This document shows, piece by piece, positions 3,289 through 63,484 of a stretch of DNA of 64,000 bases. The stretch spans positions 64,001 to 128,000 of IMG/VR virus record IMGVR_UViG_3300028786_000006. One strand, given 5' to 3'. This DNA is from a virus. Numbering within the stretch: the first letter of the stretch is position 1; each line of letters opens with the position of its first letter. The position numbers and the translations under genes were made by a program. The notes beneath the pieces are model-generated. The model was not told the DNA's origin. It did not search any database and was given only the letters and a program-made list of their open reading frames with translations.

Positions 3289-4140
3289 TCAGCCTCTAAC
3301 GAGTAACTGAAACGAAAAGGGGAGTGGCGAAAGCCACTCCCCTTTTTCTATTGCGGGTCGAAACCCCCACCCCATTTCAGCCCAGGTCTTACCAACGTGG
3401 GCTAGCTTTTCTTCTGGTGATAGGTCCCAGTTTGACTGAAGGGCGTGAGCCGTGATCGCCTTGGCGTTTAGAACTCGACAACGGTTCAATATCCCAGTCG
3501 GGCTTTTCATCGCGTGCGCCCTCATCGCATCTTCCTTGGTGTCAAACCTGCCTTTGGGTGTGACCCAATGACCGACGAAAGCGTTGCTCTTTGCACCCCG
3601 GCGTACACCAGTGTTGAAGTGTCGATACTTCGACTTGTCCTTGGCCTCTTCCTTGGACACCATGACCATCTTCTCATCGCTGAGCCTGACCATGGCCACC
3701 TGACCCAACATGATACCCGCGTACCTGTCTGGTTCGGAGTCCATCTGTCCCTGGGTCAGCCTCACCACCTTGCCCGTCTGTGTATCAAGGCGAGTGATGA
3801 TGCCATCCATCTTGGCCGACGACTTCTTTGAGTGGATCGCCCTGGCCTTCTCGTAATCACGGGATCGTCGTTCCTCGATCCTGTAGTCGTATCGCTTGCT
3901 GTTACACATACTGAAGAATGCGAACTGCAGGCCATGACTGTCGGGGTACGCCCGGCGCAATAGCCTGTGAGCTATGAAGTGTTCACGCCTCGTCAGCTTG
4001 ATGAGGTTGCCGGGGCTGTCGTCCCCACCGAGGCATCTGGGGTTGATATGGTGGCGCTCTATTCCGGTCCCGCGTGGGATGCTTCGAGCGGCACGAGAGG
4101 AGATGAAGCGATGGTATCTGTCGTGGTAATGTCTATTCAT
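3289..4140 (-). mobile_element. Free-standing HNH homing endonuclease (Mob-like)
   Basis: ERHHINPRCLGGDDSPGNLIKLTRREHFIAHRLL HNH motif; antisense insertion beside a conserved gene. Confidence 0.9.
3314..3348. terminator. Intrinsic (probably bidirectional) terminator after gp23
   Basis: aaaaggggagtggc-gaaa-gccactcccctttt perfect hairpin with A and T tracts. Confidence 0.85.
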
Positions 4141-9937: not shown

Positions 9938-12376
9938 ATGGCATTTTCCGTATCACCTTCCGTCGAGTTCACCGAACGCGACGCATCGGTATACGCGGAC
10001 CCACAGGTAGACGTGATCGGCGGTATGCCCGGCGTCTTCCTGTGGGGTCCAGCAAACGTACCGACCCTCATCACCGGCGGCGAACGCAATCTGGTCGACG
10101 TCTTCTACAAGCCGAATGACGAGACCTACCTGAGCTTCTTCGTGTTGGCCGACTACCTGTCGTACAGCTCGAAAGCCCAAGTGATTCGTTGCCTCGGCCC
10201 AGCGGCCCGCAACGCCGTACCGGAAGGCCAAGAACCTGTCAAAGTCGAAAACGACGATGACGCTGAGACCACTCAGCTGCCTGGCTACGACTTCTACGCT
10301 CGCTTCCCGGGCGCCCTGGGCAACGGCCTGTCGGTCGAAATCTGCGGTAAAGATGAATACGCCGCCTGGGAATTCCGTGGTTCGTTCAACTACACCCCAC
10401 AGGTAGGTGAATACCACATCGCTGTGATCGACACCACCGGCGCGTTTACCGGCGAAGGTGCGGCTCAGCAAACCGAAGGCCTGAACCTGAGCGGTAAAGT
10501 CGTTGGTGGCACCTACGAAGCTTTCACCCTGGCGGTGACTGCTGCGGCCCCAATCGCTTCCGGTAAACCTGAGATCATTCAGGTGCAGCTGGCAGGCGCG
10601 ACCACTGGCACCACTGTGACCATCCTCGGTCAAGCTGTTACTGTGAACGTCGGTGAAGATGCTTCGGTTGTAGCCGGTAAGGCTGAAACTCTGCTGAACA
10701 GCCTGCCAGCATTCGCGGGTGTTGTTCGTACTGGTGCAACCCTGGTTGTCACCTACGCCGCGAACACTGACCAGTCGCCTGTGCCTAACGGCGTGGAAAA
10801 CGGCATCACCAAGACGCATAGCGTGATTCAGCAGGGCAACAACACCAGCGTGATCGCCCTGGGTGGTACCAACGTGACCCTGACCGATGGCTTCACCGCC
10901 GCCGAAGTCGTGGCCGCCATCGCTACCGCCCTGACCGCTGACCCGGCTGTCAAGGAAGTTACCGTCCAAGGCACTAACGTCATGGCGAAGCGCTCTCCAG
11001 CTGCTTCTCTCGTGCCGATCGTGGAGTTTAATGCTGGTGGCCTGGTTATCGAGCCGACCATCACGACTCCTGCCAATACCGCCACTCCGGTGACTGTATT
11101 CGGTATTGTCGTGCAACTGGCCGACGGCGACACCCCTGGCCAAGCCGCGACCAAAATCGCGTCTGCTATCACCACATCCCCTGATGTGGCTAGCGCGACC
11201 GCTGCGGGTTCCACTGTCGTGTACCTGCGCAAGACGAAAGGCCGCAAGGTTGCCCTGACCGGTTTCGCCTCTTCGGGTCTGATCGGTACTGTCAACGTCC
11301 GTCAGACTGGTCGCCTGGGCTCGGTGCTCGAGAAATACGAGCTGATGAACGCCACCAAGGGTTCGAAGCACGCGAACGGCACCAGTGCTTACTTCGTGGA
11401 CAGCATCAACCGTAGCTCTCGCTATGTACGTGTTGGTGATGGCAGTGTTCTTCTGAGCACTCGCAGCGTGGCCTTCCTCGGCGGCGTCGATGACAACGTG
11501 AACGTGAACCTGACCAGCGGCTTCAACGAGTTGCTGAACAGCGAACGTCTCTCGGTGGACAACATCATCGCCGGCGCGGTAAGCGTTCAGGAACAGAAGG
11601 TCGCGTTCGACACCGCTGAATCCCGTCGTGACTGCATTGGCTGGGCTTCCCCTCCGATGGAAGCGGTGGTGAACAACCGCCAGAACGAAGTCGCTGCAGT
11701 CGTCGAATGGCGTCTGAACGAGTTCAACCCGAACACCTCCTACGGTGTGATGGACTGCAACTGGGCACTCATCTACGACAAGTACAACGATGTCAACCGC
11801 TGGATTCCTTGCTGCGGTGGCACTGCTGGCCTGTCGGCCCGGACTACCATCCTGGGCGAAGCGTGGTTCAGCCCGGCCGGCTACACCTACGGCCGTTACA
11901 AGAACTACATCCGCCTGGCATGGTCACCTGAGAAAACGCAGCGCGATGAGCTGTTCAAGAATCAGGTTAACCCGGTCATCAACGATCTCGGTAACGGCAT
12001 CGTGTTGTTCGGTGACAAAACTTCGATCACTCGCCCGAGCTCTTTCGACGCCATCAACGTCCGGAAGCTGTTCATCTTCCTCGAGAAGACCATGGCGAAC
12101 ATGGCGAAGTTTTACCTGTTCGGCATCAACGATGCGTTCACCCGCAAACAGTTCCTCGCGGCGGCCAACCCGCTGTTCCGAACTGTCCAGGGTCGCCGGG
12201 GCATCACCGACTTCCGCATCATCTGCGACGAGTCGAACAACCCAGGCGATGCGGTCGACCGGAAAGAGATGAACTGCGCGTTCTACGTGAAGCCAACCCT
12301 CTCCATTCGGAACATCTACCTGAACTTCGTCAGCGTCGGCCAGTCCGTCAGCTTCGAAGAAGTGGAAGGCATCTGA
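9938..12376 (+). CDS. 18: Tail sheath protein gp18 with large repeated insertion
   Basis: SPSVEFTERD, WGPAN, WFSPAG, LFGDKT and INVRKLF motifs; 812 aa. Confidence 0.97.
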   Translation: MAFSVSPSVEFTERDASVYADPQVDVIGGMPGVFLWGPANVPTLITGGERNLVDVFYKPNDETYLSFFVLADYLSYSSKAQVIRCLGPAARNAVPEGQEPVKVENDDDAETTQLPGYDFYARFPGALGNGLSVEICGKDEYAAWEFRGSFNYTPQVGEYHIAVIDTTGAFTGEGAAQQTEGLNLSGKVVGGTYEAFTLAVTAAAPIASGKPEIIQVQLAGATTGTTVTILGQAVTVNVGEDASVVAGKAETLLNSLPAFAGVVRTGATLVVTYAANTDQSPVPNGVENGITKTHSVIQQGNNTSVIALGGTNVTLTDGFTAAEVVAAIATALTADPAVKEVTVQGTNVMAKRSPAASLVPIVEFNAGGLVIEPTITTPANTATPVTVFGIVVQLADGDTPGQAATKIASAITTSPDVASATAAGSTVVYLRKTKGRKVALTGFASSGLIGTVNVRQTGRLGSVLEKYELMNATKGSKHANGTSAYFVDSINRSSRYVRVGDGSVLLSTRSVAFLGGVDDNVNVNLTSGFNELLNSERLSVDNIIAGAVSVQEQKVAFDTAESRRDCIGWASPPMEAVVNNRQNEVAAVVEWRLNEFNPNTSYGVMDCNWALIYDKYNDVNRWIPCCGGTAGLSARTTILGEAWFSPAGYTYGRYKNYIRLAWSPEKTQRDELFKNQVNPVINDLGNGIVLFGDKTSITRPSSFDAINVRKLFIFLEKTMANMAKFYLFGINDAFTRKQFLAAANPLFRTVQGRRGITDFRIICDESNNPGDAVDRKEMNCAFYVKPTLSIRNIYLNFVSVGQSVSFEEVEGI

Positions 12377-12971: not shown

Positions 12972-13045
12972 GCCAACCGCCCCTGACGGCTATGGTTGGT
13001 GGAGGAACCCAGGTGGCCATCAGGGGCTACGCTGGGTGAGACCTC
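12972..13045 (+). ncRNA. Candidate structured RNA (two hairpins with kissing loops) in the gp19 3' UTR
   Basis: Stems 12972-79/12993-13000 and 13007-12/13032-37; loops CCCCUGACGGCU and GGCCAUCAGGGG are complementary. Confidence 0.6.
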
Positions 13046-13054
13046 GAAGAAACA

Positions 13055-13090
13055 AAAGGGAGCCAGCGCAAGCTGACTCCCTTTTTCTTT
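13055..13090 (+). terminator. Intrinsic terminator after gp19
   Basis: aaaagggagccagc-gcaa-gctgactcccttttt. Confidence 0.85.
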
Positions 13091-13127
13091 GCCTGAATGG
13101 TTCTAGTTGAGCGAAACTAGCTCGCAC

Positions 13128-13134
13128 CTAATTA
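13128..13134 (+). promoter_or_regulatory. Late promoter variant CTAATTA
   Basis: About 36 nt upstream of the VrlC-like gene start. Confidence 0.5.
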
Positions 13135-13170: not shown

Positions 13171-16100
13171 ATGTCCGATATCGACACAAGTAACGCGCCC
13201 TACTACGATGATTTTGACGCGGACAAGGGATTCTTGCGAGTCCTGTTCCGCCCGAAGTCGGTCCAAGCGCGTGAGCTGACACAGGCTCAAACCATTCTGC
13301 AGGAACAGGTTAACCGCCTGGGCCGGCATCTGTTCACCGAGGGGGCTATGGTCATCCCTGGTGGTATTCGCATCAGCAGCCAGCAGGACTACGTCAAACT
13401 GACGTTTATCTCTGGCTCGGTGTATGACGACATCGTTGACCGCACCGACATGGTCGTGTCCTCTGTCGTAAGCGGCCTGACTGCCAAAGTCAAGAAGGTT
13501 ATCCCAGCCGAAGGCGAAGACCCACCGTCGATCTTCGTGGAGTACACCAACTCCGGCTCGGACAACATGACCAAGAAGTTCTCGGTCGGGGAAAGTCTGA
13601 AGTTCTCTATCACCGTGGACAGCGTCAACCAGAACATCGCGAACGCTCGTTCGGATGCAGTAGGCTTCGGCACCTGGGCTCAGGTAGCGGCCGGCGTTTA
13701 CTTCGTGCGCGGCTTCATGGTTCAGAACGCAGCCCAAGACGTGGTGGTGTCGAAGTACACCCAGGACTCGTCCAATCGTATCGGCTTCAATGTTGTCGAA
13801 AGTATCGTCACCGAAGACGACGACGACAGCCTGCTGTCGAACGCCCAGGGTACTCCCAACTTCAAAGCGCCGGGCGCTCATCGCCTGAAGATCGAACTGA
13901 AGCTGGCGACCGTGTCCACGGATTCGGCTGTCGACGACAATTTCATCGAGCTCGCTCGGGTCGAAGACGGTGAGACCAAGGAGCTGGTGGTTGACACCGA
14001 ATACGCTCAGCTGATGAAAACCCTGGCTCAGCGCACTTACGAAGAGTCTGGTGACTACAGCCTGGGCCAATACGATTTCGTGCTGCGTGAGCACATCAAG
14101 GACTCCACCCATCCGGATGGCGTGTTCTCTGATGACAAGGGCGGCGACGAGTCGAAATTCGTGTTCGGTGTCAAGCCGAGCATCTCGTATGTCAAGGGCT
14201 ACCGGGTTCAGAACATCGCGACTGATTACGTCCCTGTTGAGAAGGCCCGCGACACCAATTTTGTGAACAACGCCGTGAGCTCGGCGATCTACCAGAACTA
14301 CCTGATCATCACCGGCATTCACAGCTTGCCTCCGACCGACATCCGGAAGAAGATCAGCCTGCATGATGCCCCGATCGTAGCCGGCAACACCGCCGGTTCC
14401 ATCATCGGCACCGCCCGCGTTCGCGCCATCCAGTTCGTGGCCGCCGGTTCCATCAAGGTGTTCCTGACCGACATCAAGATGAACAGCGGTAAGACGTTTA
14501 GCCAAGTACAGGGTCTGCGTTATACCGATGCTTCCAGCCTGTTCGGTGCAACTGTTTCCAGTGCTTCCATGTACGGTAGCAACCAGAACACCATGCTGTT
14601 CCCGTTGCCTTACCCGGCGACCAAGTCCCTGAAGCGGGCCGGTGCATCTGACACCACCTACGCGGTGACCCGTCAATACACGGTGACCACCAACGCATCT
14701 GGCGTTGCAACGGTTTCTCTGTCGTCCAACGAAACCTTCTCGACGCCTAACCAGGTCGAGTACCTCCTCTCCGCTACCGGGGCGGCTAACACAGGCGGCG
14801 CAGTAGCTTGGGCCGAGGGTCTGTTTGTACTCAGTGGCAGCCCCGTAGGACGTTCGATCACCATCAACGCCGGTGTGGGTAACGCGAGCAAGACCTTCGT
14901 GGCGAACGTGGTGGTTATCAAGCAACAACCACTGGAGAAGACCAAGACCAAGACCGTCAAGGTCGACGTCGTCACATTCACAGCCGAAACGTTCAAGGCT
15001 CTGACGAAGTGTGATGGGTTCAAACTGAACTCGGTTATCAACGACGCCACCGGCGAAGTAGTGACCAACAGCTACAACTTCTTCAATGGTCAGACTGATA
15101 ACGGTTACCGGGTCTGTGAGTTGCGCAGCAAAAGCGGCGCGGTCACCGGCGTTTTCCAGGTCACCTACGAATACTTCGAACACAGCCTTGGCGACTTCTT
15201 CAGCGTCGACTCGTACTCGAACGTGAATTATCAGGACATCCCGACTTACATCTCGTCTTCTGGGGCAGCTTATGAACTCAGCGATTGCTTGGACTTCCGG
15301 GCTCTCTACGATGCTTCTGGTGAAATCACTTCGGTTACTTTCGCTGGTGACGTTATTCGCCCTAGCGATACTGTGCGTGTTGATGTTGAGTACTATCTTC
15401 CTCGGCGCGATAGTGTATATGTGTCTTCTGATGGCACTTTTGGCGTTGTCAAAGGCGTTCCTGGTGATGAACCAGTATACCCGGAAGTGCCAACGGACTC
15501 GATGAAGATTGCTGAGCTGACTATCTCAGCTTACACCTTCGACCCGCTCAACGTCATCGTCCGCTTGATCGACAACAAGCGCTACACCATGCGCGACATC
15601 GGCAAGCTGGAACGTCGGATCGAAAACCTCGAGTACTACACCACTCTGAGCGCCATCGAATCGAAGGTCAACAAGACCCAGATCATTGACCCGGTAACCG
15701 GTAATGACCGATTCAAAAACGGTTTCGCGACTGACGGTTTCAGCGACTTCCGCCTGTGCGACCTCGACAGCGAAGAGTTCATGTTTGCCCTTGACCTCGA
15801 CGCAACCGTAGGCCAACCGGCATTCAGCCAGTTCCCTGGCGATATGGAATTCGGGTCCGGGGCCAACCATGCGAAGGGCCTGGGCCTTGTGAGCAAGTCT
15901 TACACGCTCAAGAAGACCATCGAACAGCCGTACGCGACCCGCATGATCAACGTTAACCCGTTTGCAGTGTTCACATGGAACGGTTACGTGAGTCTGAACC
16001 CAGCGTCGGACTTCTGGAGGGACGTCTGGTACTTGCCGCCGGTCATGGTCAACCAAACGGTCGACAACCGGGGCGCGGCCGTACAGGGCACAGTGGTCAA

Positions 16101-17991
16101 CCAATGGCGGTCGAGCTGGAAGAATCGGGACCTGAACACCCTGACTACAGTGACCACGTTTTCCGAATCCACTTCGGTGAGTATCGCGGACAACTTCATA
16201 CAGAATGTGGTCTACACATTCATGCGGGCTATCGGTATCGCGTTTTCTGGTACGTGCCTGCGCCCGTTCACCCGAGTGTACCCGTTCTTCGAGGACAAAC
16301 CTGTTTCGGCCTTCTGTCGACCGGCCGGTGGTGCTAACGGCCAAGCCCTGGTCACTGACGGCTCCGGCGCAATCAATGGGGTGTTCTCGGTACCAAACAC
16401 TTCAGCGAACAACTTCCGGACAGGAACCAACGTGTTTCGCCTTACAGACCAGGCGGATGATTCTCGCAACCCTAATCTGCTGACCACATTTGCTCAGACC
16501 ACGCACGCATCTGGTGGTTCGATCGATTATCGGCAGCAGACCGTTACTTCCACCCGCATCCTGTCGTTTACTGAATCTTCGTCTCTGACCACGGTGTACC
16601 AGAAGGATCCAATCGCTCAGACTTTCTGGGTCACGTCTACCGGCGGCGAGTACCTCGCGGCGGTTGATATCTTCATGGCCACGAAGTCGAGCACGATTCC
16701 CCTGATCGTGGAACTGCGGACTGCGGAAAACGGTTACCCAGGCGGCGATGCCCTGCCGTTCGGTCGTAAGGTGTTACTGCCTTCTCAGGTCGCCGTCAGC
16801 GCTAACGGGATGACGCCAACCCGAGTGACGTTTGATGATTTGGTTTACTTGGAACCTGGGCGCGAGTATTCTATCGTTCTGATGGCGGACACCCAGGAGT
16901 ACAACGCTTGGATCTGTCAGATGGGTGAAACCGTGTTGGGTACTACCCGCTCAGTTTCGGCACAACCAAACCTGGGATCGTTCTTCGTGTCTCAGAACGG
17001 CACCACTTGGACCGCCAACCAGAACCAGGATATGAAGTTCACCTTCTACCGGGCGCTGTTTAATACTGACGACACGGTGGTGACCTTCAATAACACGGCT
17101 CCTGTTTACCGCCCGGCCAAAGGGTTTAACCCGATAGTGACTGTTTCGGGAAACAGCCGCATCGTGTTGTCCCAGGCTACACACGGTTTGAAAGCTGGTG
17201 ATACTTGCATCATTCGCGGTGCAGTCGGCGGTAACGGCTTCAGCTCGGCCCTCCTGAACAAGTCTCAGGTGGTTGAGAGCGTCTCTGGGGATGATGTCAC
17301 CATTAACCTTGGCACTCTAGCGACCGCGACGGGGAACATCGGAGGGGATGCCGTAGAGGTGCTCTCGTCCTACCCTTTCAGCTTGCTCTACGCCAACGTG
17401 AACCAGTTGATCCTGGACGGCACTTCGGTTGAGTGGAAGGTGGTCGCCAAGAACCAAAGCAACCGGGGGCTTTCATCGCCGTTCTCGTTTACACCGGGCG
17501 AAAACCATGGCATGGACGCAGAGTCAGTGATTCAGGTTGGTGGTGACCTTCAGATGACTGCAACGCTGAAGACCACCCGCGATAACCTGAGCCCAGTGAT
17601 CGACCTTGACGGCTTCACCGCCGCCCTGGTACAGCCTCGAATCAACACCGACGTGTCCAACCCGCTTTGCCGGTACGTCACCAAGGATGTGAAGTTCGAT
17701 ACCCCAAGCACCACCGCCAAGATGTATGTCGGTGCGTTGTTACCGGGCGCGACCACCATGAAGTTCTACTACAAGTTGATCAGCACCGGCAGCAGCGCGG
17801 CCAGTGGTACTTGGGTGGAGCTTGCACCTTCGGCTGGGATTGTGAACGACGATATCCGGTTCATGGAGTACACGTACAACCTGACTGGGGTCGGCTCATT
17901 CAGCGGCTTCAAAGTGAAGATCGTTCTGTTGGGTGATGACCCGACCAACGTTCCTAAGCTGTCAGACTTCAGAGCCATCGCTCTGGCGTAA
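13171..17991 (+). CDS. Large virion/baseplate protein, VrlC/DUF4815 family
   Basis: PYYDDFD...VLFRP..VQARELTQ, APGAHRLKI, RTYEESGDY, YTMRDIG, RFKNGF and DPIAQTF motifs. Confidence 0.9.
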   Translation: MSDIDTSNAPYYDDFDADKGFLRVLFRPKSVQARELTQAQTILQEQVNRLGRHLFTEGAMVIPGGIRISSQQDYVKLTFISGSVYDDIVDRTDMVVSSVVSGLTAKVKKVIPAEGEDPPSIFVEYTNSGSDNMTKKFSVGESLKFSITVDSVNQNIANARSDAVGFGTWAQVAAGVYFVRGFMVQNAAQDVVVSKYTQDSSNRIGFNVVESIVTEDDDDSLLSNAQGTPNFKAPGAHRLKIELKLATVSTDSAVDDNFIELARVEDGETKELVVDTEYAQLMKTLAQRTYEESGDYSLGQYDFVLREHIKDSTHPDGVFSDDKGGDESKFVFGVKPSISYVKGYRVQNIATDYVPVEKARDTNFVNNAVSSAIYQNYLIITGIHSLPPTDIRKKISLHDAPIVAGNTAGSIIGTARVRAIQFVAAGSIKVFLTDIKMNSGKTFSQVQGLRYTDASSLFGATVSSASMYGSNQNTMLFPLPYPATKSLKRAGASDTTYAVTRQYTVTTNASGVATVSLSSNETFSTPNQVEYLLSATGAANTGGAVAWAEGLFVLSGSPVGRSITINAGVGNASKTFVANVVVIKQQPLEKTKTKTVKVDVVTFTAETFKALTKCDGFKLNSVINDATGEVVTNSYNFFNGQTDNGYRVCELRSKSGAVTGVFQVTYEYFEHSLGDFFSVDSYSNVNYQDIPTYISSSGAAYELSDCLDFRALYDASGEITSVTFAGDVIRPSDTVRVDVEYYLPRRDSVYVSSDGTFGVVKGVPGDEPVYPEVPTDSMKIAELTISAYTFDPLNVIVRLIDNKRYTMRDIGKLERRIENLEYYTTLSAIESKVNKTQIIDPVTGNDRFKNGFATDGFSDFRLCDLDSEEFMFALDLDATVGQPAFSQFPGDMEFGSGANHAKGLGLVSKSYTLKKTIEQPYATRMINVNPFAVFTWNGYVSLNPASDFWRDVWYLPPVMVNQTVDNRGAAVQGTVVNQWRSSWKNRDLNTLTTVTTFSESTSVSIADNFIQNVVYTFMRAIGIAFSGTCLRPFTRVYPFFEDKPVSAFCRPAGGANGQALVTDGSGAINGVFSVPNTSANNFRTGTNVFRLTDQADDSRNPNLLTTFAQTTHASGGSIDYRQQTVTSTRILSFTESSSLTTVYQKDPIAQTFWVTSTGGEYLAAVDIFMATKSSTIPLIVELRTAENGYPGGDALPFGRKVLLPSQVAVSANGMTPTRVTFDDLVYLEPGREYSIVLMADTQEYNAWICQMGETVLGTTRSVSAQPNLGSFFVSQNGTTWTANQNQDMKFTFYRALFNTDDTVVTFNNTAPVYRPAKGFNPIVTVSGNSRIVLSQATHGLKAGDTCIIRGAVGGNGFSSALLNKSQVVESVSGDDVTINLGTLATATGNIGGDAVEVLSSYPFSLLYANVNQLILDGTSVEWKVVAKNQSNRGLSSPFSFTPGENHGMDAESVIQVGGDLQMTATLKTTRDNLSPVIDLDGFTAALVQPRINTDVSNPLCRYVTKDVKFDTPSTTAKMYVGALLPGATTMKFYYKLISTGSSAASGTWVELAPSAGIVNDDIRFMEYTYNLTGVGSFSGFKVKIVLLGDDPTNVPKLSDFRAIALA
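15272..15505 (+). CDS. Candidate embedded +1-frame membrane protein (77 aa)
   Basis: Very hydrophobic ORF coinciding with a local switch to T-ending codons in the host frame. Confidence 0.5.
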   Translation: MNSAIAWTSGLSTMLLVKSLRLLSLVTLFALAILCVLMLSTIFLGAIVYMCLLMALLALSKAFLVMNQYTRKCQRTR

Positions 17992-26290: not shown

Positions 26291-26327
26291 TACTTACACT
26301 GGCCAACTTCCCCGTGCCCTTTAAGTA
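26291..26327. promoter_or_regulatory. Divergent late promoters (TAAGTA on both strands)
   Basis: TAAGTA on - at 26291-26296 facing gp6; TTAAGTA on + at 26321-26327 facing the lysis genes. Confidence 0.55.
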
Positions 26328-26368: not shown

Positions 26369-26698
26369 ATGGTAACGATTCAAATCGTCCCCATCATCGC
26401 GTGGCTGTTTGTACTGGCCAAAAGTGTCAGAATTATCAGCCTCTGTAAGTGCAAGGTGAACCCGAAGCGCAAGGAAGCGGCTATCATTCTCACCAGCGCA
26501 ACGGCCGCCGTGTTTTCAATCGGCCTACAGCTTGACATCATGTTCAACGGCTCTCGATACCTCGACAGCGTTGTCATAAACCGAATGATGGTCGCAGTCT
26601 TCCTGTTGTTTGCGCTTTGGGATATCTTCATTCTGAAGTACATCACTGAGACTTCCAACATCTGCGTCAGACGAAAGGAAGCCCCCTGTGAGCACTGA
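26369..26698 (+). CDS. Multi-pass membrane protein (lysis-associated?)
   Basis: Three hydrophobic segments; overlaps the holin start. Confidence 0.6.
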   Translation: MVTIQIVPIIAWLFVLAKSVRIISLCKCKVNPKRKEAAIILTSATAAVFSIGLQLDIMFNGSRYLDSVVINRMMVAVFLLFALWDIFILKYITETSNICVRRKEAPCEH

Positions 26699-27023
26699 AA
26701 CCTTGATTTTCGAACTTTCCGAGAAGGCGCAGCGCTACCTGTCGGTGGGCATCGTGTCGGCAATTGGTGGTATCGCCAGTTACCTGTACGAGCACGTGAA
26801 AGGTGAACGCGACTTCTCCTTCCTGTCGTTCCTGACCATGATCTTCCTGGCATTCTTCGTCGGTAACGTCCTGGGTGAGTTCATCCCCCACGACATGAAG
26901 TCGCGTGATGGAATCCTGATGGTCGCTGGCTTCTCGAGCTGGCCTATCCTGGACGCCCTCAAGTCCAACGGCAAAAAGATCGCCGAGGCCGTCTTCAGCC
27001 GTGTCCTCAAGATCTTCAAGTAA
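26688..27023 (+). CDS. Holin (LydA-like)
   Basis: Three TM segments, GGIASYL, AFFVG and AGF motifs, basic C-terminus. Confidence 0.7.
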   Translation: MSTETLIFELSEKAQRYLSVGIVSAIGGIASYLYEHVKGERDFSFLSFLTMIFLAFFVGNVLGEFIPHDMKSRDGILMVAGFSSWPILDALKSNGKKIAEAVFSRVLKIFK

Positions 27024-41623: not shown

Positions 41624-42109
41624 ATGAGCATCAAAGCAGTTGATTTGGTTAATTCGCCGTTGAGTGGCGATGAAATTTTGCCGTACATGGTCGAGGTTAG
41701 TTTGCCGACCGCCATCCAGGATGAGCGTGATGCTTTCCTGAAGATTCGTGAAACACTGACCCGCATTGGCATTGCCTCCCGTCGCGACGTCAACACCCTG
41801 TACCAAACTTGCCACATCCTGAGCAAGCGCGGCAAGTTCTACATCTGCCACTTCAAGAGCATGTTCGTGCTCGACGGTCGCGAGAACAATCTGAGCGTGA
41901 GCGACATTGCCCGCCAGAACCGCATTGCCCGCCTGTTACAAGAATGGGGCCTGCTGACCATCCTGGACCCATCCATCTGCGACGAACCCGTTGCGAGCAT
42001 GGGTAACCTGAAGGTCATCCCACACCGCGAGCGCTCTGAGTGGATTTTATCGCCAAAATATCAGATAGGCAAGAAAGGCGGCCCTAACACGCCCGGTGCA
42101 ACTTTGTAA
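41624..42109 (+). CDS. regA: Translational repressor RegA
   Basis: FLKIRETLTRIGIAS, LYQTCHIL, HFK and QNRIARLLQEWGL motifs. Confidence 0.95.
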   Translation: MSIKAVDLVNSPLSGDEILPYMVEVSLPTAIQDERDAFLKIRETLTRIGIASRRDVNTLYQTCHILSKRGKFYICHFKSMFVLDGRENNLSVSDIARQNRIARLLQEWGLLTILDPSICDEPVASMGNLKVIPHRERSEWILSPKYQIGKKGGPNTPGATL

Positions 42110-43001
42110 AATTGCACACGTCGATCTCCTTTCGACAGAACGAACAGCACACCCTGGGCCGCGAAGTAGCGGCCTGTTTCATCCGGTCTTTGGTCGCATC
42201 GCTCGCCCGCTTACCGACGAACTTCTGAATATGAGCTTCTGTCATCTTCCGGCCTTTGGCCCAACCGTCTAACCGGTATTTTTGAAGATGGCTAGCATCA
42301 ATCCTCAGATGGTCGTCACCCCGGTTAACCCAGATGGTGCCCTTGACAGCATCGGAAATATCAGACTTTGATGCAGGGTTGGATTTGATCCACCCATCGG
42401 CGAGTAGGGCATCAACTTCTTCGGGGCGTACCATGCGGCGTTCGCCAGTGGGTGATAAGACCCACACGGTGCCTTTTGCATTTGTGTTACCCATGAGACC
42501 TGGTGGTGTGCCTATTACCCAACTGTCGTCCAGGTAGGGTTGGAGGTTTTCGATCTTCACCCTCTTGGTAACCCCTCCCCTGGTTATGAACTTGCGGCCC
42601 TTGGCGGCTTCTGATAAATGGGAGAAGTCGCTGTTGCGGTGTTCGATTCTGAGCTTCTCGAACATCCTGGAATTGATCTTGTACGTGCGACCATCGCGTG
42701 TACCGGTACACATGGCCCAGAACCCGAACCGAGTGTCTCGGTTACCAGGTAACGCCCTCCACAGTATGGCGTGCGCGATGTAGTGTGCACGCGGCGACAG
42801 AGGGGCTGTGTTCCAAGGGTGTTTGGCTAAGCTGGTGAACTGAGGAAACAAGCCAGGGGCTTTGGGAAGGATGTGGTGGTTCTCTACAACGGAGGCCGCC
42901 GGCTGGGACAGGACGAACTTCAGGTAACGAATAAGGTGATGCTGATTCACTGGTACGTTGAGATCGTTGAATTGCTTGATAAAGAAATTGATGGTTTTCA
43001 T
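42084..43001 (-). mobile_element. Second free-standing HNH homing endonuclease
   Basis: ENHHILPK...WN..LSPRAHYIAH.ILW; repeated KGT.WV..G modules; terminal CxxC...H..C. Confidence 0.88.
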
Positions 43002-62035: not shown

Positions 62036-63484
62036 GTGTTTATCGAGAAGACCTGCATTTCAAGTCTGCTGTTTGACAAAGATTACAGCCGGAAGGTTCT
62101 ACCCTACCTGAAGGACGAATACTTCTCGGATGAATCCAACCGGGTGCTCTTTGGGCACATTCGTTCATTTAACGCCCGGTACAACTGCGCCCCCACGAAG
62201 GAGGCTCTCGTCCTGCTCCTGGAGGATTCAACCCTCAACGAGAAGCTATATGAGGGGTGCATTGAGACGGTCGCCGAGGTAGAGGCAAGCGCCACCCCCA
62301 CGGAATTTATGGTGGATAGCACCGAGAAGTGGGTGAAAGACCGGGCCGTGTTCTTGGCCCTGACGGAATGTGTGCAGATCGCCGAGGGTATGTCAAAGGG
62401 CATGACCAAGGAGTGTATCCCTGATATCCTCCAGCAAGCGCTCGCGGTTCACTTTGACACCTACCTCGGCCACGATTACTTCGAACATGCGTCCCAGCAC
62501 TATGACGCAATGCACGAGGACGTGATCAAGTTCAAGTTTGCCCAGGACATCCTCAACAAAGCAACCCGTGGGGGTATCCCCAACAAGACTCTGAACATCG
62601 TCCAGGCCGGCATCAACGTCGGCAAGACGACCTTCATGATCGACCAAGCGGCGCATTGGGTTAGCCAGGGCAAGAACGTGATCTACTTCTCGGCCGAGGT
62701 TGCTGAGAACGTTATCCGCCACCGGGCGGACGTAAACTTCTTCGACATCTCGTTCGACGAGCTTGAAAAGCTGGACAAGCAGACGTACCTGAACCGGGTC
62801 ACGTCGCTCAAGCAGAAGACGAGCGGTAAGCTGATTATCAAGGAGTATCCATCGGGTTCGGCCAGCGCGGCGAACTTCATGCACGACATCCAAGAAATCA
62901 AGATGAAGACGGGTATTGAGTTTGACATGGTTTGCGTCGACTACCTCGGCGAGATCATTTCTAGTACCCTACCCATGTCCGCGATGAGCAACACCAACAC
63001 GTACTACACACAGATTGCGCGTGAGCTACGGGCCATGGCCTTCCGCTTAGACTTGCCTGTGTGGACCGCAGCACAGTTTGGTCGGTTGGGCCAGGCCAGC
63101 AAAGACGTTGACATGACGGACATCGCCGATGCAATCGGTATTGCCCGCGTGGCCGACTTCATGATCGCTCTGTTACAACCAGACGAGCTTGCTGAGCTGA
63201 ACCAGGTGATCGGGAAGATCCTCAAGAACCGGTATGCCAACAAGGCCAAGCTGCGTCGCTTCCTTATGGGGGTTGACAACGACCGCCAGAAGTTCTACGA
63301 TGTTGACCAAGCGAACGTCAAGGAAGAGTTCAAGAAGCTGCCACCTGAAGCCCAGGCCGTACTGGAAGGACTTGAGGTCGGGTTGAAGACCCAGGCTGAC
63401 GATGATGCTGAATTACCGCGCCTGACCCCTGTGGGTAACCGCTCCGGTAAGCCAGCTCGCACCTTTGAAGGGTTCAAGGTATAG
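62036..63484 (+). CDS. 41: Replicative helicase gp41
   Basis: RKVLPYLKDEYF, AGINVGKT, IIKEYP, VDY, WTAAQ and KNRY motifs. Confidence 0.95.
   Translation: MFIEKTCISSLLFDKDYSRKVLPYLKDEYFSDESNRVLFGHIRSFNARYNCAPTKEALVLLLEDSTLNEKLYEGCIETVAEVEASATPTEFMVDSTEKWVKDRAVFLALTECVQIAEGMSKGMTKECIPDILQQALAVHFDTYLGHDYFEHASQHYDAMHEDVIKFKFAQDILNKATRGGIPNKTLNIVQAGINVGKTTFMIDQAAHWVSQGKNVIYFSAEVAENVIRHRADVNFFDISFDELEKLDKQTYLNRVTSLKQKTSGKLIIKEYPSGSASAANFMHDIQEIKMKTGIEFDMVCVDYLGEIISSTLPMSAMSNTNTYYTQIARELRAMAFRLDLPVWTAAQFGRLGQASKDVDMTDIADAIGIARVADFMIALLQPDELAELNQVIGKILKNRYANKAKLRRFLMGVDNDRQKFYDVDQANVKEEFKKLPPEAQAVLEGLEVGLKTQADDDAELPRLTPVGNRSGKPARTFEGFKV

Follow-up and report, generated by a model that had tools for sequence, protein, structure and literature searches.

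A hydrophobic reading frame hidden in the baseplate gene vrlC of Cygsa01-like phages, very likely a gene and possibly an accessory to lysis

The vrlC locus and its +1 reading frame

The window analyzed here, a stretch of 64,000 nucleotides, comes from a virus record of 162,341 bases that has T4-like head and tail genes. On its plus strand lies vrlC (13171-17991), which encodes a virion/baseplate protein of 1606 aa with a Pfam DUF4815 match spanning VrlC residues 582-951. The orthologue in LIMEstone1 carries the annotation "confirmed structural protein", and VrlC homologues are virion proteins, with that of Listeria phage A511 placed at the baseplate by work cited in PMC4621102. Among cultured relatives, Pseudomonas phage Cygsa01 comes closest by VrlC, at 63.7% identity; Ralstonia phage RSP15 and the Ackermannviridae are next, at ~38-40%. 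For 169 genes of the record there are orthologues in Cygsa01, with a median identity of 67.5%. Cygsa01 is a 166-kb myovirus on P. syringae, genus Cygnusvirus (PMC11256456), and the phage of the window presumably has a Pseudomonas host.

Some features of these records lie outside the main question. GenBank record PP179332.1 of Cygsa01 leaves vrlC (L081:6498-11318) without annotation, and a "tRNA-Ala" on the opposite strand (10646-10725) occupies its place, probably a false call that displaces a 1606-codon gene. In the window, hairpins between the tail-tube gene and vrlC (13021-13091, plus strand) give a weak Rfam match to BjrC68 (24.6 bits, under the cut-off of 39). Two HNH-like ORFs with HHI motifs lie on the opposite strand, at 3289-4140 after the major capsid gene and at 42084-43001 after regA, and are probable homing endonucleases.

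Inside vrlC, a second ORF runs in the +1 frame from an ATG to a TGA (15272-15505, plus strand; 77 aa), over host codons 701-778 and within the DUF4815 match. The first-pass annotation had described it as an embedded hydrophobic gene whose selection leaves a footprint of T-ending codons in the host gene. The ORF, its translation and its +1 offset from the host frame were confirmed exactly, and the hand counts behind the footprint were exact as well, with 34 of the 53 codons at 15310-15468 (plus strand) ending in T, against 8 of 40 in a control stretch. Across the whole of vrlC, 317/1607 codons end in T.

We compared this patch with a null in which the VrlC protein is held fixed and synonymous codons are redrawn from the rest of the gene (20,000 draws). 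The 34 T-ending codons observed stand against a redraw mean of 11.4 (sd 2.9, maximum 23), and the mean hydropathy of +1 residues 14-66 is 2.23, against -0.17 in the redraws (sd 0.32), a level unreached in 20,000 draws. The two measures are linked, because T at that position makes the +1 residue hydrophobic. Among 33,831 windows of 40 codons in the genome, the patch ranks first for third-position T (T3), with a z of 7.3 against 4.7 for the next independent peak. The highest hydropathy of any 30-mer across all six frames of the genome (2.67) likewise falls in the +1 product. An open +1 frame of this length alone is not rare, arising at equal length in 5-44% of redraws per genome, and the stop codon is no evidence for a gene, since it is dictated by a Met-Lys pair of the host protein and is found in non-carriers as well. 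The second T3 window of the genome (z 4.7) lies in the insertion region of the tail sheath gene (10628-10750, plus strand), where the +1 frame is interrupted by stops; judging from that frame, it is not a hidden gene of the kind seen in vrlC.

Conservation of the hidden frame and its origin

Five orthologous loci carry the same frame (Cygsa01, L164, L166, L167 and L168), with VrlC proteins 62-70% identical to that of the window. In all six carriers, which are related and amount to about three or four independent lineages, the 77-codon +1 frame is open, and start position, length and stop are alike. The joint chance of an open frame in four lineages, which are not fully independent, is ~0.001 by synonymous redraw and 0.018 under a T-matched null. 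Of the 53 codons of the patch, 26-32 end in T in the five orthologues, where the fraction over the gene is 0.13-0.21, and no vrlC window of any carrier scores higher for T3 than the patch does (z 5.0-7.5). A comparison of 169 gene pairs with Cygsa01, 38,199 aligned codons in all, gave this patch as the sole shared T3 peak (7.3, next 3.6). Within the clade, the orthologues show neither +1 stops nor a lost T3 bias, and the patch does not behave as a recombined AT-rich tract.

The suppression of synonymous variation that the first-pass annotation predicted proved weaker than expected. Plain synonymous identity is raised in the patch (z ~4) but is not the highest of the gene, reaching 7.6 elsewhere, in strongly codon-biased parts of vrlC. 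Shared rare third bases, in contrast, are unique to the patch in their density: they score 32.6 there against at most 15.0 elsewhere in vrlC (four lineages), and the sites that have them number 15/79 inside and 35/1527 outside. We regard this as the fair control, as P-values for identity of the +1 protein assume independent synonymous sites and are too small. At the residue level, Val/Ala swaps in the host protein (GTT/GCT) are silent in the hidden frame, where they read as TTG/CTG Leu at residues 37 and 59, and residues A30 and A62 are invariant among carriers. Host residue 728 is Ile or Val in all carriers, whereas Met728 forces a +1 stop in L186 and L170.

The closest non-carrier (L084/L186) has a VrlC of 57.5% identity and similar GC, with 9/53 T-ending codons and two +1 stops. 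It retains an ATG at the start site of the hidden ORF, so the ATG alone is no marker of carriers. Two quick tree searches place it differently, one as the sister group of the carriers (support 26) and the other within them (support 92), and its retained start context would fit a possible loss of the gene. Between the tail-tube gene and vrlC, L186 has twelve small minus-strand genes (L186:4933-9886), where the window has none and the other carriers have one to three. No such T patch was present in about 170 more distant vrlC loci or in twelve named phages. Open +1 stretches in RSP15, L001, Vi01, Det7, AG3 and May were left uncounted, as none showed an excess of T (z -0.5 to 1.9) or a start in common. 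IMG/VR scans and a DNA pattern gave no further close orthologue beyond 54% identity, and an orthologue search among shorter proteins was empty.

The patch could instead encode no protein and be a nucleic-acid feature (an AT-rich import, an unwinding element, an RNA structure, a pause cluster or an antisense gene) or a decaying relic, which we consider improbable. Plain synonymous identity is, as noted, also high elsewhere in vrlC, a weak hairpin can be folded at ~15341-15368 in the six carriers, and the antisense frame is likewise open. However, the rise at third positions concerns T alone: codons ending in A show no increase, and TTG encodes none of the Leu residues in the patch, which argues against an AT-rich import and against a patch that is simply T-rich. 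Protein identity of the patch to outgroups equals that of its flanks. Outside the patch, identity at four-fold sites is down to 37-54%, close to saturation, so a neutral tract would have decayed, as in L186. An RNA structure is opposed by a covariation term of +0.17, that is, none, and by the lack of any Rfam hit at the patch, and an antisense gene by the lack of a start codon above the patch in 3/6 carriers. Pausing was rejected, as slow codons would be expected to be the A-ending ones, the rarest in vrlC, and these are not raised. An extended -10-like TGATATTAT within the ORF of four carriers could speak for an internal promoter, but it is missing in this genome and in L164.

The orthologue frame, the T3 bias and the redraw tests thus support well a selected overlapping gene for a membrane protein, as the first-pass annotation had proposed, and 15272-15505 is very likely a gene that is translated and under selection. 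Searches with its product gave no homologue in Pfam, PHROG or NCBIfam, only weak hydrophobic noise, and none in the ESM Atlas; a profile run against 1.84 billion representative proteins found none either, and six-frame searches of four genomes led back only to vrlC and its own +1 frame. As the host frame is ancient, the hidden one is younger, and with no homologue among 1.84 billion proteins the gene looks born by overprinting. In the T-richer relatives RSP15, L001 and Det7, the same VrlC stretch gives fairly hydrophobic, partly open +1 frames with no T excess, which shows that raw material for such a birth exists and mirrors the account of the origin of phiX174 E (PMC8227390). On the present sequences, it is very probably a real gene, overprinted and restricted to the Cygsa01-like group. 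The open literature that we searched holds no description of it, and it is annotated in no record checked.

Start signals, transcription and predicted product

The start codon is ATG in five carriers and TTG in one, at the same codon position. In the window, a Shine-Dalgarno-like GGGG (15262-15265, plus strand) lies 6 nt before the ATG; four orthologues have GGGGTGA at the same distance, and the fifth (L164) has TAAGGA at closer spacing. The predicted duplex with the 16S tail is -4.7 kcal/mol here, -6.1 to -15.3 kcal/mol in the orthologues and -3.3 kcal/mol in the non-carrier, so that the signal is weak in this genome, with its 4-nt GGGG, and strong in the four carriers other than L164. The strongest (-15.3 kcal/mol) precedes the single TTG start. 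The motif contains the rare Gly codon GGG in 5/6 carriers, whereas L186 has GGT at this place. The start region is less folded than shuffles in 4/4 genomes, a weak effect (z +0.9 to +2.1).

These signals also bear on a programmed +1 frameshift near vrlC codon 700-725, which would yield a truncated VrlC of ~780 residues with a membrane anchor and in which the SD-like motif would act as a stimulator. Constraint on the hidden frame is indeed weaker over residues 1-25 than in the core, and a rare AGA codon is found at host position 709 in three carriers. The AGA is confined to one subclade, though, and the alignment has no shared slippery run, while the start codon sits in the same place in 6/6 carriers, at initiation distance from the SD, and the strongest SD goes with the weak TTG start. 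We regard a frameshift as very improbable.

Upstream of vrlC, all six carriers have a late-promoter-like CTAATTA (13128-13134, plus strand), a variant of the TAA(A/G)TA motif that precedes the structural genes of this phage. From such sites, the late promoter of the group appears to be (C/T)TAA(A/G/T)TA; those in the window are at 876, 1798, 6026, 9887, 13128 and 26321, and the T4 late consensus TATAAATA is absent from the genome. No late-promoter-like motif was found inside vrlC of the six carriers, and no sigma-70 site upstream of the hidden ORF in the four carriers tested. With a late motif before vrlC and no promoter of its own, transcription of the hidden gene most likely occurs late, as part of the vrlC message, and the late expression suggested by the first-pass annotation gains indirect support. 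A terminator-like hairpin on the minus strand (15694-15678), in the same place in four carriers, may reflect only the conserved residues TQIIDP.

The predicted product has a central hydrophobic core, residues 26-60 (15347-15451, plus strand), with no D, E, K or R in any of the six carriers. Synonymous redraws would place about 2-3 K/R in the core per genome (2.2-2.9), against 0 seen. Across the carriers the uncharged stretch is 35-39 residues long and flanked by K/R, 17 residues follow the core, the net charge is +5 to +9, and there is no conserved Cys. The two TM segments proposed earlier are plausible in a stretch of 35-39 residues without charge, but two AlphaFold runs (1-5 sequences) both gave one unbroken helix; the core may span the membrane as one long or two short helices. 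The basic tail exists, with 5-6 K/R, but equals the null expectation of 3.3-5.6 and is no more than chance.

Possible functions of the hidden protein

The phage has lysis genes elsewhere. A two-gene membrane cassette (26375-27023), with a TTAAGTA motif at 26321, comprises a LydA-family holin (26688-27023, plus strand) and, upstream of and overlapping it, a 107-aa protein with about three hydrophobic segments and no Pfam hit (26375-26698, plus strand), which is conserved in Cygsa01, L164 and L186 and is a candidate second holin or antiholin. Two genes encode candidate cell-wall enzymes, one with DUF5675 that directly follows the portal gene and one of the Hydrolase_2 type (G000 62965-63414, 131091-131516; L176, L177); the Cygsa01 annotation names them an L,D-peptidase and a putative endolysin, respectively. 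PF03245 is absent from the genome, and together with any-frame lipobox scans this gave no spanin pair; the sole clear lipoprotein gene (G000 147185-147511, L178; 108 aa), conserved in Cygsa01 at 78709, has no i-spanin-like neighbor and no Pfam hit. Vi01, CBA120, AG3 and other family members (Ackermannviridae) are likewise listed as spanin-less (PMC6139136). The hidden gene lies ~11 kb from the holin and adjoins no lysis gene.

Its nearest parallels are other embedded genes. The lysis gene E of phiX174 is embedded in the +1 frame of the scaffolding gene D (PMC8227390), and both cases combine a +1 frame in a structural gene, host T3 that falls on position 2 of the embedded frame and yields a membrane helix rich in Leu, and birth by overprinting. 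In phiX174, however, E acts as the only lysis gene, in a genome of 5 kb with a high T content throughout, whereas this 162-kb genome favors C/G-ending codons, has a holin and candidate endolysins and keeps its T patch local, and the hidden protein has no sequence likeness to E. The leviviral lysis proteins in rep, including MS2 L (75 aa; PMC7693330), are also small, SD-preceded, TMD-bearing, in the +1 frame, lineage-restricted and unannotated; here, however, the gene is hidden in a dsDNA myophage with a multi-gene lysis system, and lytic activity is hypothetical. Lambda Rz1 within Rz (PMC6139136) is likewise a fully embedded +1 gene of a tailed dsDNA phage, of a type often missed by annotation. 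Like the disruptin gp28 of phiKT (bioRxiv 10.1101/515445), the hidden protein is under 80 aa, has a charge of at least +4, is helical and belongs to a phage with no recognizable spanins.

Membership was nevertheless rejected for the o-spanin, i-spanin, disruptin, L-like and Imm types, whereas the comparison with class II holins points both ways. An o-spanin of the Rz1 type is opposed by the lack of a lipobox or conserved Cys and by a host gene that is a DUF4815 baseplate gene, with no i-spanin partner. An i-spanin of the Rz type is opposed by the central core, after which only 17 residues follow, and by the absence of PF03245. For a disruptin, phiKT gp28 is hydrophilic (15/56 residues charged), has no membrane segment and lies in the lysis cassette, whereas the hidden protein has an apolar core and lies in vrlC. 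Proteins like MS2 L are marked by a Leu-Ser motif after the hydrophobic segment. In the carriers, Leu-Ser occurs at residues 39-40 in 3/6 and at 59-60 in 1/6, and a holin is present, so the L-like class was set aside too. Class II holins, pinholins and T4 Imm have 70-85 residues, room for two membrane helices and a basic C-terminus, and the hidden protein is of similar size; its 35-39 uncharged residues between flanking K/R could hold two helices, but AlphaFold gave one, and its tail charge stands at the null level. Unlike class II holins and pinholins, it has no family match, is not beside an endolysin and is embedded; it matches no holin family, sits in no lysis cassette, and its profile gave a probability of 0.9% against the holin of this phage. 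T4 Imm, unlike the hidden gene, is an early gene, and an Imm type was rejected on the lack of a Pfam hit and of an upstream sigma-70 site (the genome search with PF14373 lacked a positive control).

We propose that the vrlC message would be produced late in infection from the promoter at 13128 and that some ribosomes would initiate internally at the SD/ATG (15262-15274), reading the +1 frame into a 77-residue all-helical protein. Its apolar core of 35-39 residues would enter the inner membrane of the host, with basic residues flanking it on the cytoplasmic side, and selection on this core would keep the third positions of the host codons at T. As an accessory lysis factor, the protein could then tune or complete envelope failure by depolarizing the membrane, by shifting the timing of the LydA-type holin or, as the phage has no recognizable spanins, by aiding passage through the outer membrane. 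An accessory job in lysis seems the most likely because the protein would accumulate together with the virion proteins, lacks a soluble domain and, as a cationic product of 9 kDa, resembles small lysis proteins in size and charge pattern.

If the gene is real, a role in lysis, argued from precedent, stands just short of an even chance, and the explanation as a whole, an overprinted late inner-membrane accessory to lysis, is one that we hold tentatively, at somewhat less than that. Precedent points both ways: 21/33 active leviviral lysis genes lie in the +1 frame of rep, but 178/293 TMD-bearing embedded candidates were harmless on expression (PMC7693330). In the non-carrier L186 the same holin cassette is present but the hidden gene is missing, so the latter is not needed for lysis in the group, and enteric spanin-less relatives without it mean that it cannot be the general spanin substitute of the family. 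It is unlikely, although conceivable, that it represents a new kind of lysis component, for example an inner-membrane spanin substitute or an inhibitor of a host envelope enzyme that works beside the holin and endolysin, and was born in an essential baseplate gene.

Two other functions would suit a real gene. The protein could guard the infected cell or the progeny, as a membrane protein that acts late in exclusion, in lysis inhibition or in blocking a receptor or transporter, or as an inhibitor of membrane defense or stress responses of the host. T4 Imm is a small two-helix inner-membrane exclusion protein of about 80 residues, so such proteins exist, and the patchy presence of the gene, with its possible loss in L186, fits an accessory gene with a role in conflict. 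As a rule, however, exclusion genes are expressed early, and no early promoter was found upstream, nor any match among Pfam, PHROG or NCBIfam families; we consider a guard somewhat unlikely. A role in morphogenesis, as a membrane anchor or chaperone that tethers baseplate assembly to the inner membrane or as a minor virion protein at DNA entry, would draw on the location inside vrlC, which couples synthesis to VrlC in time and place, and on the conserved small residues A30 and A62, which hint that the helix packs against a partner. About 170 other vrlC loci, the close L186 included, build baseplates without the hidden gene, and the protein has no soluble domain with which to bind VrlC, making this reading decidedly unlikely.

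Embedded hydrophobic genes are known mostly from tiny, space-short phages and from the Rz/Rz1 pair, whereas the gene described here belongs to a 162-kb phage without such pressure and sits in a virion gene unrelated to lysis, without a homologue. Since Cygsa01 is a cultured carrier that grows on P. syringae, a VrlC-silent knock-out and plasmid expression are feasible, and a scan for third-position T is a cheap finder of such hidden genes in GC-rich phages. If the lysis role is true, the protein would be relevant to envelope rupture by phages that lack spanins and could represent a new antibacterial membrane protein. Whatever its function, the carrier and non-carrier genomes make a clean example of a gene born de novo, and the carriers together with a close non-carrier allow the birth or loss of the gene to be traced.
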